Shown here: piece by piece, positions 11,595-18,812 of the stretch
How the letters are laid out: the number at the start of each line of letters is the position of its first letter
Numbering within the stretch: position 1 is the first letter of the stretch
Position numbers and translations under genes: made by a program
Notes under the pieces: generated by a model
What the model was told of the DNA's origin: nothing
Database searches by the model: none
The model's input: only the letters and a program-made list of their open reading frames with translations
Assembly: GCF_056746865.1 (NCBI RefSeq)
Contig: NZ_CM163382.1
Reading direction: 5' to 3' (one strand)
DNA: 64,000 nt

Positions 11595-12257
11595 ATGGAA
11601 CTTTTGACCCAATTGCTGCAAGCCCTGTGGGCGCAGGATTTTGAAACCCTGGCCAATCCGTCGATGATTGGCATGTTGTATTTTGTCTTGTTTGTAATTT
11701 TGTTCCTTGAAAACGGCTTGCTTCCGGCGGCCTTTTTACCGGGCGACAGTTTACTGGTGTTGGTCGGCGTATTGATTGCGAAAGGCGCGATGGGCTATCC
11801 GCAAACGATTCTGCTGCTGACCGTTGCCGCCAGCCTCGGTTGCTGGGTCAGCTATATTCAGGGGCGATGGTTGGGCAATACCCGCACTGTACAAAACTGG
11901 CTATCTCATTTACCCGCGCATTATCATCAACGCGCACACCATCTTTTTCATAAACACGGTTTATCGGCGCTGTTAATTGGTCGCTTTATTGCATTTGTCA
12001 GAACACTGCTGCCGACGATTGCCGGATTATCAGGGCTGAATAACGCGCGCTTTCAGTTCTTCAACTGGATGAGCGGTCTGCTGTGGGTATTGATCCTGAC
12101 AACTCTGGGTTACATGCTCGGCAAAACGCCGGTATTTTTAAAGTACGAGGACCAGCTGATGTCATGCCTGATGCTGCTCCCGGTGGTGCTGCTGGTGTTT
12201 GGCCTGGCAGGTTCTCTGGTCGTGTTATGGAAAAAGAAATATGGAAATCGGGGGTAA
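11595..12257 (+). CDS. yqjA: DedA-family inner-membrane protein YqjA
   Basis: 220-aa ORF, recognised. Confidence 0.9.
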
Positions 12258-12260
12258 GGG

Positions 12261-12644
12261 ATGCAAATACCTCGCATGTCGCTTCGCCAGCTAGCCTGGT
12301 CCGGCGCTGTTTTACTTCTGGTCGGCACACTGTTGCTGGCCTGGTCCGCGGTTCGCCAGCAAGAGTCTACGCTGGCGATTCGTGCCGTTCATCAAGGGAC
12401 AACGATGCCAGACGGTTTTTCAATCTGGCATCACCTTGACGCTCACGGCATTCCTTTCAAAAGTATCACCCCCAAAAATGACACTCTGTTAATTACCTTT
12501 GACTCCAGCGACCAGAGTGCCGCCGCAAAAGCGGTCCTCGACAGAACATTGCCCCATGGCTACATCATCGCGCAGCAGGACAATAATAGTCAGGCTATGC
12601 AGTGGCTGACCCGGTTGCGGGATAACTCTCATCGCTTCGGATAA
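12261..12644 (+). CDS. mzrA: MzrA (YqjB), membrane modulator of the EnvZ/OmpR two-component system
   Basis: 127-aa ORF with a single N-terminal TM segment, starting 4 nt after the yqjA stop (likely co-transcribed). Confidence 0.88.
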
Positions 12645-12790
12645 CTTCCTGTTATCCGAAACATATCACTGACTTTGGTGATTTCACCGTAACTGTCTAT
12701 GATTAATGAGGCGGTGGTTAACACTACCGCTTCGTTGTCTGGACAATCGTTCCTTTGTAATAGGTCCGAATCACAATGGAAGGTTCAAGA

Positions 12791-13159
12791 ATGAAATACC
12801 GCATCGCTTTAGCTGTTTCTCTCTTTGCTCTTAGTGCCGGTAGTTATGCCACTACCCTGTGTCAGGAAAAGGAGCAAAATATCCTTAAGGAGATCAGCTA
12901 TGCCGAAAAACACCAAAACCAGAATCGTATTGACGGTCTGAATAAAGCCCTGAGTGAAGTCCGGGCCAACTGTTCAGATAGCCAGCTGCGTGCCGATCAT
13001 CAGAAGAAAATCGCAAAGCAGAAAGATGAGGTGGCGGAACGCCAGCAAGATTTAACCGAGGCGAAGCAAAAAGGCGATGCCGATAAGATTGCCAAACGCG
13101 AACGGAAACTGGCAGAAGCGCAGGAAGAGCTGAAAAAGCTGGAAGCGCGCGACTACTAA
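12791..13159 (+). CDS. yqjC: DUF1090 periplasmic protein YqjC (signal peptide, coiled-coil rich)
   Basis: ORF track 12776..13159; start at MKYRIALAVSLFALSAGSYA (signal-peptide-like); Lys/Glu/Ala/Gln-rich helical body. Confidence 0.85.
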   Translation: MKYRIALAVSLFALSAGSYATTLCQEKEQNILKEISYAEKHQNQNRIDGLNKALSEVRANCSDSQLRADHQKKIAKQKDEVAERQQDLTEAKQKGDADKIAKRERKLAEAQEELKKLEARDY

Positions 13160-13196
13160 CTCACAATAGTCACTACTTACTCACCTGGAGAAAACT

Positions 13197-13502
13197 ATGT
13201 CGAAAGAACACACTACGGAACATCTGCGTGCTGAGTTGAAATCCCTTTCCGATACGCTGGAAGAGGTGCTTAGCTCATCTGGCGAGAAGTCGAAAGAAGA
13301 GTTGAGTAAGATTCGTAGCAAAGCGGAGCAGGCACTGAAACAGAGCCGTTATCGCCTGGGTGAAACCGGTGATGCCATCGCCAAACAAACCCGTGTCGCG
13401 GCGGCGCGTGCCGATGAGTATGTGCGTGAAAATCCATGGACGGGCGTGGGCATTGGCGCTGCAATCGGTGTAGTGCTCGGCGTTCTGCTATCGCGTCGTT
13501 AA
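13197..13502 (+). CDS. yqjD: Ribosome- and membrane-associated stationary-phase protein YqjD (ElaB/YgaM family)
   Basis: 101-aa ORF with a C-terminal TM anchor (GVGIGAAIGVVLGVLLSRR); GGAGA RBS upstream. Confidence 0.88.
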   Translation: MSKEHTTEHLRAELKSLSDTLEEVLSSSGEKSKEELSKIRSKAEQALKQSRYRLGETGDAIAKQTRVAAARADEYVRENPWTGVGIGAAIGVVLGVLLSRR

Positions 13503-14846: not shown

Positions 14847-15833
14847 ATGGGTCAACTGATTGACGGCGTCTGGCATGACACCTGGTACGATACCAAATCT
14901 ACCGGCGGTAAATTTCAACGTTCAGCTTCCGCATTTCGTAACTGGCTCACTGCCGATGGCGCGCCAGGCCCCACTGGCACAGGCGGTTTTATCGCAGAGA
15001 AAGATCGTTATCATCTCTATGTTTCACTCGCCTGCCCGTGGGCGCACCGCACGCTGATCATGCGTAAACTCAAAGGACTGGAACCGTTTATTTCCGTTTC
15101 CGTAGTGAACCCGCTGATGCTGGAAAACGGCTGGACCTTTGATGACAGTTTTCCGGGTGCAACCGGCGATACACTCTATCAACATGAATTTTTGTATCAG
15201 CTTTATCTCCACGCCGATCCACACTACAGCGGACGAGTTACTGTTCCCGTGCTGTGGGACAAAAAGAACCACACCATCGTCAGCAACGAATCAGCAGAAA
15301 TCATCCGCATGTTCAATACCGCGTTTGATGCGCTGGGCGCGAAAGCTGGTGATTACTACCCATCAGCCCTGCAAACGAAAATTGACGAACTTAACGGCTG
15401 GATTTATGACACCGTTAACAATGGCGTGTATAAAGCCGGTTTTGCCACCAGCCAGCAAGCCTACGACGAGGCGGTAGTGAAAGTGTTTGAATCGCTGGCG
15501 CGACTGGAGCAGATTTTAGGCCAGCATCGTTACCTGACCGGCAACCAGCTAACCGAAGCCGATATTCGCCTGTGGACCACGCTGGTGCGTTTTGATCCGG
15601 TGTATGTCACCCACTTCAAGTGTGATAAGCACCGCATCAGCGATTACCTGAATCTGTATGGTTTCCTGCGCGATATCTACCAGATGCCGGGGATTGCCGA
15701 AACTGTCAATTTCGATCACATCCGTAATCACTACTTCCGCAGCCATAAGACCATCAACCCTACGGGGATTATTTCAATTGGTCCGTGGCAGGATCTCGAT
15801 GAACCGCATGGACGAGATGTTCGCTTCGGTTAA
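14847..15833 (+). CDS. yqjG: Glutathionyl-hydroquinone reductase YqjG (Xi-class GST)
   Basis: ORF track 14826..15833; start at MGQLIDGVW (328 aa) with GGAGGAG RBS; CPWAHR active-site motif present. Confidence 0.92.
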   Translation: MGQLIDGVWHDTWYDTKSTGGKFQRSASAFRNWLTADGAPGPTGTGGFIAEKDRYHLYVSLACPWAHRTLIMRKLKGLEPFISVSVVNPLMLENGWTFDDSFPGATGDTLYQHEFLYQLYLHADPHYSGRVTVPVLWDKKNHTIVSNESAEIIRMFNTAFDALGAKAGDYYPSALQTKIDELNGWIYDTVNNGVYKAGFATSQQAYDEAVVKVFESLARLEQILGQHRYLTGNQLTEADIRLWTTLVRFDPVYVTHFKCDKHRISDYLNLYGFLRDIYQMPGIAETVNFDHIRNHYFRSHKTINPTGIISIGPWQDLDEPHGRDVRFG

Positions 15834-15858
15834 AAAAAGGCACCTTACGAGGTGCCTC
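15833..15858. terminator. Stem-loop terminator downstream of yqjG
   Basis: aggcacc-ttacg-aggtgcct hairpin immediately after the yqjG stop, flanked by an A-run upstream and T-rich sequence downstream. Confidence 0.6.
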
Positions 15859-15885
15859 TGATTATTAGCTAAGTGCGTGTTATTT

Positions 15886-15985
15886 ATGTCGGATGCGGCG
15901 TGAACGTTTTCTCCAACTTACAAAACGTTTATATTCAATATGTTACAATGCCGCGTAGGCCAGATAAGCGTAGCGCATCTGGCGA
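15886..15985. repeat. REP/BIME-like palindromic repeats
   Basis: gtcggatgcggcgtgaacg and gccgcgtaggccagataagcgtagcgcatctggcg resemble the REP consensus (GCCGGATGCGGCG... / ...CTTATCCGGCCTAC). Confidence 0.55.
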
Positions 15986-16124
15986 TTTTGCGCTTGTCAT
16001 CAGTCTTAGCGCGCCTTCACGGCACTTTATTAATTCCTTGAACGAATATTTACTGCCATTTCATTCACGTCTATTCTTAATTTGCTGCTTTAAAAACAAG
16101 TGATTGAGCAAAATTGAGGCAAAA

Positions 16125-16490
16125 ATGGACTGGTATCTGAAAGTACTAAAAAATTATGTCGGTTTCCGGGGTCGTGCGCGGCGCAAAGAGTACTGGATGT
16201 TTATTCTGGTCAACATCATCTTTACGTTCGTGCTGGGGCTGCTGGATAAAATGTTAGGCTGGCAACGCGCTGGTGGCGAAGGCATCCTGACAACAATCTA
16301 CGGTATTCTGGTGTTTTTACCGTGGTGGGCGGTTCAGTTCCGCCGCCTGCACGACACCGACCGCTCGGCGTGGTGGGCACTGCTGTTCTTAATCCCGTTT
16401 ATCGGCTGGCTTATTATCATCGTCTTTAACTGCCAGGCGGGTACGCCAGGCGAAAACCGCTTTGGACCTGATCCAAAACTGGAACCTTAA
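16125..16490 (+). CDS. yhaH: DUF805-family inner-membrane protein YhaH
   Basis: ORF track 16104..16490; start at MDWYLKVLKNYVGF (121 aa); paralogous to the next gene, yhaI. Confidence 0.88.
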   Translation: MDWYLKVLKNYVGFRGRARRKEYWMFILVNIIFTFVLGLLDKMLGWQRAGGEGILTTIYGILVFLPWWAVQFRRLHDTDRSAWWALLFLIPFIGWLIIIVFNCQAGTPGENRFGPDPKLEP

Positions 16491-16731
16491 AACAAATCTG
16501 CTCGCCGGATGTCTGACTCATCCGGCTTTTATCATCATGTTGATGAATGAATAATTTACTAATGTTTAGTTAAAATATTTCAATGTCGTTATATAAATTA
16601 CATATAAAAAACAACCATATATTTATCTTAAATATTAAAACCTTTATAACATCCGAAAAAGAAAGATACGAATAGCATTTACACAATACCCGGAATAGAC
16701 TTTCGTCACTTTTAATTAAAGGGATGTTTTT

Positions 16732-17034
16732 ATGCAGTGGTATTTATCCGTATTAAAAAATTATGTTGGTTTCTCTGGTCGCGCACGTCGTAAAGAGTAC
16801 TGGATGTTTACTCTGATTAACGCCATCGTCGGCGCTATTATCAATGTCATTCAATTGATTTTAGGTTTAGAGTTTCCGTTCCTTTCTCTCATTTACCTGG
16901 CAGCAACAATCATTCCGGTCATTGCTCTGTGCGTTCGTCGTCTGCATGATACTGACCGTTCAGGTGCGTGGGCGCTTCTCTATCTGGTACCGATCATTGG
17001 CTGGTTAGTTCTGTTTGTATTTGCCTGTTGGTAA
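16732..17034 (+). CDS. yhaI: DUF805-family inner-membrane protein YhaI, 3' end disrupted by IS1 (reading frame ends ...FVFACW* with the stop inside IS1)
   Basis: ORF runs into the IS1 end at 17030; N-terminus MQWYLSVLKNYVGFSGRARRKEYWMF is paralogous to YhaH; removing IS1 and one TSD copy restores a 118-aa frame. Confidence 0.85.
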   Translation: MQWYLSVLKNYVGFSGRARRKEYWMFTLINAIVGAIINVIQLILGLEFPFLSLIYLAATIIPVIALCVRRLHDTDRSGAWALLYLVPIIGWLVLFVFACW

Positions 17035-17044
17035 TGACTCCAAC

Positions 17045-17548
17045 TTATTGATAGTGTTTTATGTTCAGATAATGCCCGATGACTTTGTCATGCAGCTCCA
17101 CCGATTTTGAGAACGACAGCGACTTCCGTCCCAGCCGTGCCAGGTGCTGCCTCAGATTCAGGTTATGCCGCTCAATTCGCTGCGTATATCGCTTGCTGAT
17201 TACGTGCAGCTTTCCCTTCAGGCGGGATTCATACAGCGGCCAGCCATCCGTCATCCATATCACCACGTCAAAGGGTGACAGCAGGCTCATAAGACGCCCC
17301 AGCGTCGCCATAGTGCGTTCACCGAATACGTGCGCAACAACCGTCTTCCGGAGCCTGTCATACGCGTAAAACAGCCAGCGCTGGCGCGATTTAGCCCCGA
17401 CGTATCCCCACTGTTCGTCCATTTCCGCGCAGACGATGACGTCACTGCCCGGCTGTATGCGCGAGGTTACCGACTGCGGCCTGAGTTTTTTAAATGGCGG
17501 AAAATCGTGTTGAGGCCAACGCCCATAATGCGGGCGGTTGCCCGGCAT
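17045..17548 (-). CDS. insB: IS1 transposase InsB (expressed as an InsAB' fusion by -1 frameshifting)
   Basis: 167-aa ORF recognised as IS1 InsB ([16 protein letters not shown]...). Confidence 0.95.
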
Positions 17549-17742
17549 CCAACGCCATTCATGGCCATATCAATGATTTTCTGGTGCGTACCGGGTTGAG
17601 AAGCGGTGTAAGTGAACTGCAGTTGCCATGTTTTACGGCAGTGAGAGCAGAGATAGCGCTGATGTCCGGCAGTGCTTTTGCCGTTACGCACCACCCCGTC
17701 AGTAGCTGAACAGGAGGGACAGCTGATAGAAACAGAAGCCAC
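17467..17742 (-). CDS. insA: IS1 InsA (zinc-finger/HTH transposition inhibitor)
   Basis: 91-aa ORF with CPSC...CSHC zinc-finger motif; canonical IS1 InsA sequence. Confidence 0.95.
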
Positions 17743-17805
17743 TGGAGCACCTCAAAAACACCATCATACACTAAATCAGTAAGTTGGCAGCATCACCTTG
17801 CCTGT

Positions 17806-17865
17806 TTAGAGGGCAATTCTGGCAGCAATCGTTACGGAAACGATCCGAAATTTGGTTCAAATTAA
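17806..17865 (+). pseudogene. yhaI: Displaced 3' fragment of yhaI (would encode the C-terminal LEGNSGSNRYGNDPKFGSN*), separated from the gene body by IS1
   Basis: In-frame continuation of the yhaI reading frame once IS1 and one TSD copy are removed. Confidence 0.75.
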
Positions 17866-17875
17866 TATTAAAATT

Positions 17876-17893
17876 GGGGCGATATTTCGCCCC
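17876..17893. terminator. Bidirectional stem-loop terminator between convergent yhaI and yhaJ
   Basis: ggggcgatatttcgcccc perfect hairpin flanked by A/T-rich sequence on both sides. Confidence 0.65.
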
Positions 17894-17915
17894 TTGTTAT
17901 TAACAATAACAAATA

Positions 17916-18812
17916 TTATTTTCCGCTAAAAAGTTTGGGAATTTCCCGCAGACACCAGGATTTCGCTTCCCCCATACTGTCACGACGCCAGGCCATAATA
18001 ATATCGATCTCGCTGGTCGATTCCGGGCTGACGACACGCAACCGCCCTTCCGCAATATCTTTTTCGACCATCGGATACGGCATCGTCGCCACGCCAAGCC
18101 CCGCCAGTAATGCCTGACGTTTATCTTCAATCGTGCTCACCGTTAAGCGCGGCTGTTTGTCCAGCAGCTGTACGGTCAACACCGGGCGCTCACGAGCGGT
18201 ATCCGCCACCGCAATTCCACGATATTTCACGCGCGTCACTTCAGATAACGGTTCCGGCTCCTGATGAATCGGGTGATCAGGCGCGGCAACGTAGACGTTC
18301 ATTAACGTATAGAGCTTGCGCGAGTTGATCTCCGACGAGGAACGAAAATGCATATCCGGCGCGATAACAATATCCGCCCGCCCCTGCTCCAGCCGTTCCC
18401 ACGCCCCCGCCAGCACTTCGGTGATAATTGCCAGTTGGGTATTGGCTTTTGCCGCCAGTTTGTCGATTAACGGGAAAAAGGCAGGTGTCGGTACCAGCGC
18501 CTCGGTCACAATGGTGAGATGCGTTTCCCAACCGCGCGCGAGAGCTTCCGCATCGGTAGTCAGTTTATCTGCGGCTTCCAGCAAAACGCGCCCTCGCTCC
18601 AGCAACATCCTCCCGACATTGGTGAATTTGGTGCGATGGCCCGAGCGGTCAAACAGCACCACATCCAGCTCTTCTTCCAGTTTTTGCATGGTGTAGCTAA
18701 GTGCGGAAGGCACGCGTCCCAGCTCATCCGCCGCCGCCGCAAAACTGCCCCGGCGATCGATCGCATCCATAACCCGTAGTGCTTCCAGCGTTAATGCCCT
18801 TTCTTTGGCCAT
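17916..18812 (-). CDS. yhaJ: LysR-family transcriptional regulator YhaJ
   Basis: 298-aa ORF; N-terminal HTH (LTLEALRVMDAIDRRGSFAAAADELGRVPSALSYTMQKLE) plus LysR substrate-binding domain. Confidence 0.92.
   Translation of the reverse strand: MAKERALTLEALRVMDAIDRRGSFAAAADELGRVPSALSYTMQKLEEELDVVLFDRSGHRTKFTNVGRMLLERGRVLLEAADKLTTDAEALARGWETHLTIVTEALVPTPAFFPLIDKLAAKANTQLAIITEVLAGAWERLEQGRADIVIAPDMHFRSSSEINSRKLYTLMNVYVAAPDHPIHQEPEPLSEVTRVKYRGIAVADTARERPVLTVQLLDKQPRLTVSTIEDKRQALLAGLGVATMPYPMVEKDIAEGRLRVVSPESTSEIDIIMAWRRDSMGEAKSWCLREIPKLFSGK

Follow-up and report, generated by a model that had tools for sequence, protein, structure and literature searches.

The closest described counterparts of the genes considered here are yhaH (b3103) and yhaI (b3104) of Escherichia coli K-12, and RefSeq labels both 'DUF805 domain-containing protein' (Pfam PF05656). 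We found the same genes, in the same context, in a 64,000-nucleotide stretch of NCBI RefSeq assembly GCF_056746865.1, contig NZ_CM163382.1 (hereafter, the window), where comparison with the annotation of homologous loci gives the order yqjF-yqjG-yhaH-yhaI-yhaJ-yhaK at about 16-18 kb, yhaJ being convergent. The encoded YhaH is 100% identical to that of K-12. Unlike in K-12, however, yhaI is present as allele A, which differs in a 183-bp patch (69% nucleotide identity, 17 amino-acid changes), and is interrupted by the insertion sequence (IS) IS1. Both genes are already known and annotated and an IS1 insertion is itself routine, and these facts alone add nothing; population data mark the locus as unusually dynamic, with an IS1 hot spot, three yhaI states and a recurrent deletion of a yhaH loop.

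Three further kinds of described system are relevant to this locus. Inner-membrane proteins known as phage DNA-entry factors are ManYZ for lambda, PtsG for HK97 and NfrB for N4. Like these, YhaH is an inner-membrane protein whose loss blocks particular phages and whose complementation restores them; unlike these, it is far smaller (121 aa, three helices) and unrelated in sequence and fold. The genes outside the locus of enterocyte effacement (LEE) that are controlled by Ler and H-NS in enterohaemorrhagic E. coli (EHEC) are a second case, Ler acting through displacement of H-NS. Like them, yhaI is Ler-activated (PMC3891560) and has an AT-rich upstream region, a candidate for binding by Ler or H-NS. 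Finally, the bgl operon of E. coli is described as receiving IS1 and IS5 insertions in its H-NS-silenced, AT-rich regulatory region (PMC9678765). The yhaH-yhaI locus resembles bgl in having an AT-rich, probably H-NS-bound region with repeated independent IS1 insertions. It differs in that the bgl insertions are selected for operon activation, whereas most of those at yhaH-yhaI, being situated inside the genes or in the DNA separating them, would be inactivating and are not known to confer any activating phenotype; H-NS binding at yhaH-yhaI is itself only presumed.

Overall, we consider it likely that the locus holds an old DUF805 pair in which yhaI is silenced by an AT-rich, H-NS-type region and has been inactivated by IS1, at a place that is a recurrent IS1 target. 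Of the two, yhaH is the conserved copy and yhaI the fast-evolving, dispensable one. On this reading, the two genes are old paralogues encoding inner-membrane proteins of about 120 residues with three helices, and form two separate transcription units between yqjG and yhaJ. The AT-rich region would hold yhaI silent via H-NS-type binding, and the gene would be switched on through counter-silencing (Ler) or envelope stress (Cpx), the two copies thus differing mainly in regulation. In this genome the IS1 insertion would inactivate yhaI, and IS1 would accumulate at the locus through its preference for AT-rich, probably H-NS-coated DNA, together with a loss of the proteins that is tolerated or even favoured.

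The DUF805 pair and the interruption of yhaI

A sequence-only reading of this stretch had taken yhaH and yhaI for tandem DUF805 paralogues sharing an N-terminal motif and an RRLHDTDRS loop, the downstream copy being hit by IS1, and on all these points it was borne out (Table 1). The 768-bp element inside yhaI is the sole IS1 in the window. Its 23-nt inverted ends are 78% complementary, the 9-bp duplication TTGCCTGTT stands on both sides, and its open reading frames (ORFs) match PF03811, PF12759 and PF03400 (Zn_ribbon_InsA, HTH_Tnp_IS1 and DDE_Tnp_IS1) at 75-261 bits. The insertion breaks yhaI after 298 nt, and the truncated ORF takes in one further codon from the IS1 end before its stop at 17034, giving a product of 100 aa (99 native residues plus W). 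When 16732-17029 is joined to 17807-17865, the result is a DUF805 protein of 118 aa with exactly the sequence of E. coli allele-A products. The cut removes its residues 100-118 (19 aa), including the three family-invariant positions N111, G114 and P117, and because of this loss we infer that the 100-aa YhaI is inactive. Furthermore, the insertion at codon 100 appears private to the strain of the window, since IS1 was found at precisely this position in none of the 5,426 complete E. coli genomes searched, and the E. coli strains 118UI, 2017C-4173W12 and CFSAN061770, which are 100% identical to the window at 12000-13273, 16271-16418 and 25000-26273, carry an intact allele-A yhaI.

The two genes lie head to tail on the same strand and both products belong to PF05656, with bit scores of 120.9 for YhaH, 109.1 for reconstructed YhaI and 86.9 for its IS1-truncated form (Pfam gathering cut-off, 25.7 bits). 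In BLASTP, YhaH and reconstructed YhaI are identical at 63 of 118 positions (53%; 66% positives, E 2e-44) over their whole length. Accordingly, the similarity extends beyond the N-terminal motif, which is found in both proteins, and takes in the RRLHDTDRS loop and a C-terminal N-R-[FY]-G-x-D-P-K tail; the low identity outside that motif which, according to the sequence-only reading, would have spoken against a tandem duplication is not seen. An alignment of 41 sequences from several phyla gave 17 invariant positions (Y11, F14, G16, R17, R20, E22, W24, F26, L28, P66, R73, R74, H76, D77, N111, G114 and P117). The corresponding family motifs, G-R-x-x-R-x-E-x-W before helix 1, R-R-x-H-D after helix 2 and N-x-x-G-x-x-P in the tail, are all present in YhaH and in reconstructed YhaI. 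DUF805 was found in Bacillota, Actinomycetota, Bacteroidota and Pseudomonadota. Among the NCBIfam profiles, the pair had matches far below cut-off only, and in the anti-phage defence models of PADLOC-DB no family was matched at E <= 0.1.

The duplication that gave rise to the pair is, on sequence distances, old and not recent, since the distance between YhaH and YhaI (53% identity) is about that to homologues of other phyla and their sister grouping has a support of only 44%. Indeed, comparing either protein with single-copy homologues from Bacillota, Streptomyces, Pasteurellaceae and Bacteroidota gives identities of 45-61%, a range that overlaps the value between the paralogues, and a neighbour-joining tree gave bootstrap values of 100 for the YhaH clade and 70 for the YhaI clade. 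Among Enterobacteriaceae, YhaH keeps an identity of 78-88%, and YhaI shares no more than 61-64% with the Citrobacter, Superficieibacter and Intestinirhabdus orthologues. In Citrobacter rodentium the arrangement yhaH-yhaI-yhaJ is the same as in E. coli, and Superficieibacter has three consecutive DUF805 genes. In Salmonella, Klebsiella, Enterobacter and E. marmotae, yhaH stands alone between yqjG and yhaJ; since yhaI is absent from these and from 1,055 of the 5,426 E. coli genomes, it appears to be dispensable. A scan of species representatives with 8-residue patterns returned no Escherichia, Salmonella or Klebsiella, probably reflecting representatives without yhaI together with patterns that do not match yhaH, and the enterobacterial gene context was obtained instead from contigs encoding the proteins. 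As side observations, the third gene of Superficieibacter electus is divergent, encodes 145 aa and lies upstream of the yhaH and yhaI homologues (locus L089, 2619-3056), and Aquimarina, Hafnia and, with three copies, Polaribacter likewise have DUF805 genes in tandem.

At the 5' ends of the two genes, the first 96 nt (16125-16220 and 16732-16827) are 78% identical. In this part, E. coli yhaI is 76-80% identical to yhaH genes vs. 71-72% to its own orthologues, and old gene conversion or a constraint at the nucleotide level may account for this. A recent conversion between the paralogues was considered as well: among conserved codons, 27% differ in codons 1-32 vs. 66% in the 3' half (Fisher p = 0.007), a test confounded by composition, the 5' region being rich in W, M and two-fold codons and other pairs giving an equally low value.

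Table 1. Coordinates of yhaH, yhaI, the inserted IS1 and neighbouring features in the window.
Feature	Position	Strand	Description	Basis
yhaH	16125..16490	+	intact DUF805 gene, 121 aa, conserved copy; ATG 16125, stop ends 16490	ORF and translation
yhaH direct repeats CGTGGTGGGC x2	16321-16330 and 16369-16378 (span 16321..16388 as listed)	+	48 bp apart	
yhaH terminator-like hairpin	16504..16535	+	GCCGGATG...CATCCGGC + TTTT; stem 16504-16526, 8 pairs, 6 G-C	terminator scan
AT-rich region 5' of yhaI	16531..16731	.	candidate H-NS-silenced promoter region	
CpxR-box-like direct repeat CTAAACATTAGTAAA	16555..16569	-	1 mismatch; weak lead only	
yhaI 5' part	16732..17029	+	codons 1-99 plus 1 nt, allele A; ATG 16732	
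left 9-bp target-site duplication TTGCCTGTT	17021..17029	.		repeat search and junction mapping
IS1, 768 bp	17030..17797	-	insA 17467-17742, insB' 17045-17548, minus strand	
right 9-bp target-site duplication TTGCCTGTT	17798..17806	.		repeat search and junction mapping
yhaI orphan 3' end	17807..17865	+	codons 100-118 plus stop; encodes invariant N-x-x-G-x-x-P tail	
bidirectional terminator-like hairpin GGGGCGATATTTCGCCCC	17876..17893	.	between yhaI and convergent yhaJ	terminator scan, both strands
yhaJ	17916-18812	-	convergent to yhaI	

Upstream region and expression of yhaI

The spacer between the genes (16491-16731) had been correctly placed and measured at 241 bp in the sequence-only reading, which described it as nearly all A/T and typical of curved or H-NS-bound DNA. 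The first description is overstated, the spacer having 72.2% A+T overall and its first 40 bp, which contain the yhaH terminator hairpin and T run, only 50%. Nevertheless, the region upstream of the second copy is unusually AT-rich, since 16531-16731 has 76.6% A+T over 201 bp, with 85% in its core (16550-16650), and no other segment of that length in the window (mean 49%) is as rich in A+T. Curvature was unsupported: AA/TT were not phased at 9.5-11.5 bp, the periodicity score being 1.77 against a shuffle mean of 3.14, with 82% of the shuffles scoring at least as high. In two other genera, too, the DNA before yhaI is AT-rich, with 29.6% GC over 223 bp in C. rodentium and 20% GC over the last 100 bp in Superficieibacter. 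The sequences cannot be aligned; on this comparison, it is the AT-richness of the upstream region that is conserved across the three genera, and not its sequence.

Published expression data fit two separately controlled genes, the second of them tightly repressed. In EHEC, yhaI is the most strongly Ler-activated gene outside LEE, at 36-fold (PMC3891560). When CpxR is overproduced, yhaI rises 3.2-fold on arrays and 40.3-fold by quantitative PCR, the same as spy, and yhaH rises 1.9-fold; according to the authors, the newly found CpxR-responsive genes are without CpxR boxes (PMC2731931). In Salmonella, the yhaH mRNA is a validated target of the small RNA SdsR and starts at a separate 5' end, 43 nt before the AUG (PMC5137417). 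The terminator-like hairpin that follows yhaH is the reason for predicting separate transcription units. Moreover, H-NS silencing of the yhaI region is plausible, since Ler, an H-NS antagonist, and CpxR overproduction both induce yhaI in the published work.

IS1 insertions and variation of the locus within E. coli

We surveyed the complete E. coli genomes (n = 5,426) with a query combining the locus and IS1, and examined three control loci by the same design. IS1 was found in or near the locus in 239 genomes, of which 158 had it in the orientation of the window and 81 in the opposite one; these figures count genomes and not events and are inflated by clonal expansion, one group of at least 30 near-identical records being a single event. 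The control loci, run in one orientation only, gave 6 genomes for tdcE, 1 for yqjA-yqjD and 29 for tdcA-tdcR-yhaB. Junctions were mapped in 20 fetched genomes and the window, over an interval corresponding to window 16016-17899 in IS-less coordinates, and revealed 20 distinct sites among the 21 loci, with duplications of 7-9 bp, both orientations, and IS1 variants 91-100% identical. By region, the yqjG-yhaH spacer has two sites, yhaH has six (codons 11, 15, 15, 31, 34 and 89), the yhaH-yhaI spacer four, yhaI seven (codons 11, 26, 27, 32, 49, 100 and 116) and the DNA between yhaI and yhaJ one. In different strains, IS1 has entered codon 11 of one or the other paralogue at an identical 9-mer, AAAAAATTA (16148-16156 and 16755-16763). 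IS1 is reported to prefer AT-rich targets of 8-9 bp (PMC10359306).

Two side observations concern other insertions. The tdcA-tdcR-yhaB region (31500-32773, 64% A+T) itself gathers IS1, its 29 genomes in one orientation being well above the GC-normal controls, which fits the preference of IS1 for AT-rich DNA. In E. coli ECN24, ISApl1 lies directly downstream of yhaI, at the usual place of yhaJ, in addition to an IS1 in the spacer (locus L096, 2464-2652).

With regard to yhaI itself, allele A was present in 2,290 and allele B, that of K-12 and O157, in 2,081 of the complete genomes, the remaining 1,055 (19%) having neither. The alleles are 98-100% identical across the locus, spacer included, except in yhaI codons 45-105. 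The divergent patch (16864-17029 plus 17807-17823) has 26 codons with synonymous-only differences beside the 17 amino-acid-changing ones, and no intermediates were seen. The difference between the alleles is confined to what would be transmembrane helix 2, the loop and transmembrane helix 3, as placed in the phage-related reading taken up below. Gene conversion from yhaH was rejected as the origin of the patch, whose identity to yhaH is no higher than 50-55% whichever allele is taken, and import from yhaI of C. rodentium or Superficieibacter is unsupported at 58-61% identity.

E. coli genomes without yhaI lack the terminator, the AT-rich spacer and the gene (the equivalent of window 16484-17915). 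In these, yhaH ends in KLEQE and is followed by the hairpin TTAAGCACCTTGTAAAAGGTGCTTAA and the yhaJ stop codon (locus L084, 2860-2903). E. marmotae has a homologous junction, and the genes flanking the one in these genomes are typical of E. coli; with the yhaI-bearing form also present in Citrobacter, both arrangements thus cross species boundaries. The single DUF805 gene of these genomes was considered as a chimera formed by unequal crossover of yhaH and yhaI, and this was rejected, the gene being a full yhaH with different last codons and a different hairpin.

Length variants were also found in both genes. The CGTGGTGGGC repeats (16321 and 16369) predict a 48-bp in-frame deletion of the RRLHD loop of yhaH (16 aa) and the reciprocal duplication, and both exist in nature as exact matches: the deletion is protein P0217 (105 aa; 193 contigs, 369 collection blocks) and the duplication protein P0121 (137 aa; 19 contigs). 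Allele B carries a T7 tract at yhaI codons 95-97 (locus L085, 2786-2792) that is not in the window allele. Proteins frameshifted at this tract (-1 and +1) occur on 345 contigs (P0055) and 190 contigs (P0073), and may partly be assembly errors. Phase variation of allele B at the tract is unsupported, since 1,980 of the 2,082 complete genomes with this allele (95%) have exactly T7, leaving a variation of at most 5%.

YhaH, phages and alternative explanations

A review of the y-ome (2024) lists yhaH and yhaI as both still uncharacterised, so that for biochemistry the earlier view of DUF805 as a family of unknown function stands; it no longer does in full, since a 2024-25 preprint ties YhaH to phage infection. 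According to that preprint, mutation of yhaH makes the host resistant to phages PhiWec188 and PhiWec190 and complementation makes it sensitive again; YhaH is described there as a required inner-membrane protein. As this need of two myoviruses for YhaH is its sole recorded phenotype, we take YhaH to be an inner-membrane entry factor exploited by them. An AlphaFold model built with the 41-sequence alignment (mean predicted local distance difference test 91.3, predicted template modelling score 0.79) begins with an amphipathic helix (2-13), followed by long helices at 20-44 and 54-77 and by a third that is kinked (82-89 and 93-103), in agreement with the small membrane proteins with three transmembrane helices that DUF805 comprises; the predicted fold had no match among solved structures. 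The model suggests an N-terminus inside and a C-terminus outside, because 7 of the first 23 residues are K or R and because of the RRLHD loop. The invariant charged cluster (G16, R17, R20, E22 and W24 with R73, R74, H76 and D77) would then be cytoplasmic and the conserved tail periplasmic.

DUF805 also occurs, though rarely, in phage genomes, in 15 of 50,697 records, and in PHROGs it corresponds to one family, phrog_12855, described as a membrane-protein moron. The Shiga toxin (Stx) phages 75/02 and POCJ13 have an intact, unannotated 129-aa DUF805 ORF with all family motifs in the nin region. The adjacent genes are on the other strand, and the location of the ORF is moron-like (in 75/02, NC_029120.1, at about 16334-16723, complement; locus L111, 2471-2860).

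Several points weigh against an old pair with a silenced, IS1-inactivated second copy at a recurrent IS1 target. As regards silencing, a scan of the spacer with the published high-affinity H-NS motif gave nothing notable, a sigma-70 promoter scan gave no good match, and the missing AA/TT phasing points the same way. The CpxR-like box (GTAAA-N5-GTAAA, one mismatch) belongs to a common near-match type, with 10 such matches in the window vs. 3.3 expected, and the CpxR effect on yhaI may be indirect. The inactivity of the 100-aa YhaI is deduced from its lost residues, and the phage phenotype comes from a single preprint and was seen for YhaH, not for YhaI. The spacer might instead combine a terminator with an ordinary weak promoter, its AT-richness being the usual bias of enterobacterial intergenic DNA, without architectural or silencing role. 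The lack of phased A-tracts and of a strong H-NS motif would suit this, as would an Rfam scan of 15700-18000, in which neither the genes nor the spacer matched any family at E <= 1 (a sub-threshold isrD match at 15833-15877 only), and other intergenic regions of the window that reach 70-75% A+T. We find it quite unlikely, however, since the spacer is the extreme of the window for A+T, its AT-richness is kept before yhaI in three genera despite sequence turnover, and the published 36-fold (Ler) and 40-fold (CpxR) inductions imply a strongly repressed basal state. A different origin is also conceivable, in which yhaI came by horizontal transfer, as a DUF805 cassette consisting of an AT-rich promoter, the gene and a terminator, to lie beside a resident yhaH or was exchanged there, and is silenced as foreign DNA. 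The GC content at third codon positions is low in yhaI (0.42 vs. 0.62 in yhaH), its upstream region is AT-rich, the gene is patchy among genera and present or absent within E. coli, and both states cross species. In addition, YhaI is 52-58% identical to proteins of Bacillota and Streptomyces, similar to its identity to YhaH, and no donor was identified for the A/B patch. Yet the tree sets the YhaI clade beside enterobacterial YhaH and not other phyla (although with a support of only 44), position and orientation are identical in three genera, the 5' end of E. coli yhaI is nearer to yhaH genes than to its orthologues, and mobility genes or repeats do not flank it; on balance, such an acquisition seems unlikely to us.

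As regards the hot spot, besides the genome-based counts and single-orientation controls already mentioned, the sites are scattered along all 1.9 kb of the interval, a single one falling in the 85% A+T core, and the AT-richer tdcR-yhaB control has five-fold fewer IS1 genomes than the yhaH-yhaI locus; AT content thus cannot by itself account for the excess. A serious alternative is that loss is selected for, or is tolerated. In its strict form, with the clustering due to selection for YhaH/YhaI loss (e.g., phage resistance) and not to IS1 target preference, we hold it to be somewhat doubtful. The resistance of the yhaH mutant to both phages, reversed by complementation, argues for it, together with the placement of 13 of 20 sites within the two coding sequences, the in-frame deletion of the RRLHD loop, and the complete absence of yhaI from 19% of genomes. 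On the other hand, 7 of the 20 sites are intergenic and the density per bp is similar in genes and spacers; selection would predict other IS families too (the survey covered IS1 only); the identical target AAAAAATTA in both paralogues points to sequence preference; and the AT-rich control is also enriched over the GC-normal ones (29 vs. 1-6). Selection for loss and target preference are not mutually exclusive. A broader version, to which we assign a rather low likelihood, would make yhaH-yhaI a phage-interaction locus under long-term diversifying, loss-favouring selection, with YhaH, and by extension YhaI, needed by certain phages. The states so maintained might be the two ancient yhaI alleles, the yhaI-less haplotype shared with E. 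marmotae, the yhaH loop deletion and dozens of independent IS1 knock-outs. If true, this would be the first functional handle for DUF805, some phages (the Stx phages) carrying a DUF805 copy of their own.

The old, silenced and interrupted pair that we favour has a wider bearing, as DUF805 is very widespread and has 17 invariant positions, yet is without assigned function or structural relative. The dynamics of the locus, together with the phage report on YhaH, give a concrete and cheap experimental route to function. Moreover, the locus is a natural test bed for distinguishing IS1 targeting of H-NS-coated DNA from retention of insertions where loss is harmless.

As to the surroundings of the pair, the y-ome review (2024) describes yhaH as 'surrounded by repeat sites'. 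In the window, a stretch resembling repetitive extragenic palindromic (REP) sequences lies 5' of yhaH at 15876-15975 and is 78% identical to K-12, its flanks being 96-100% identical.

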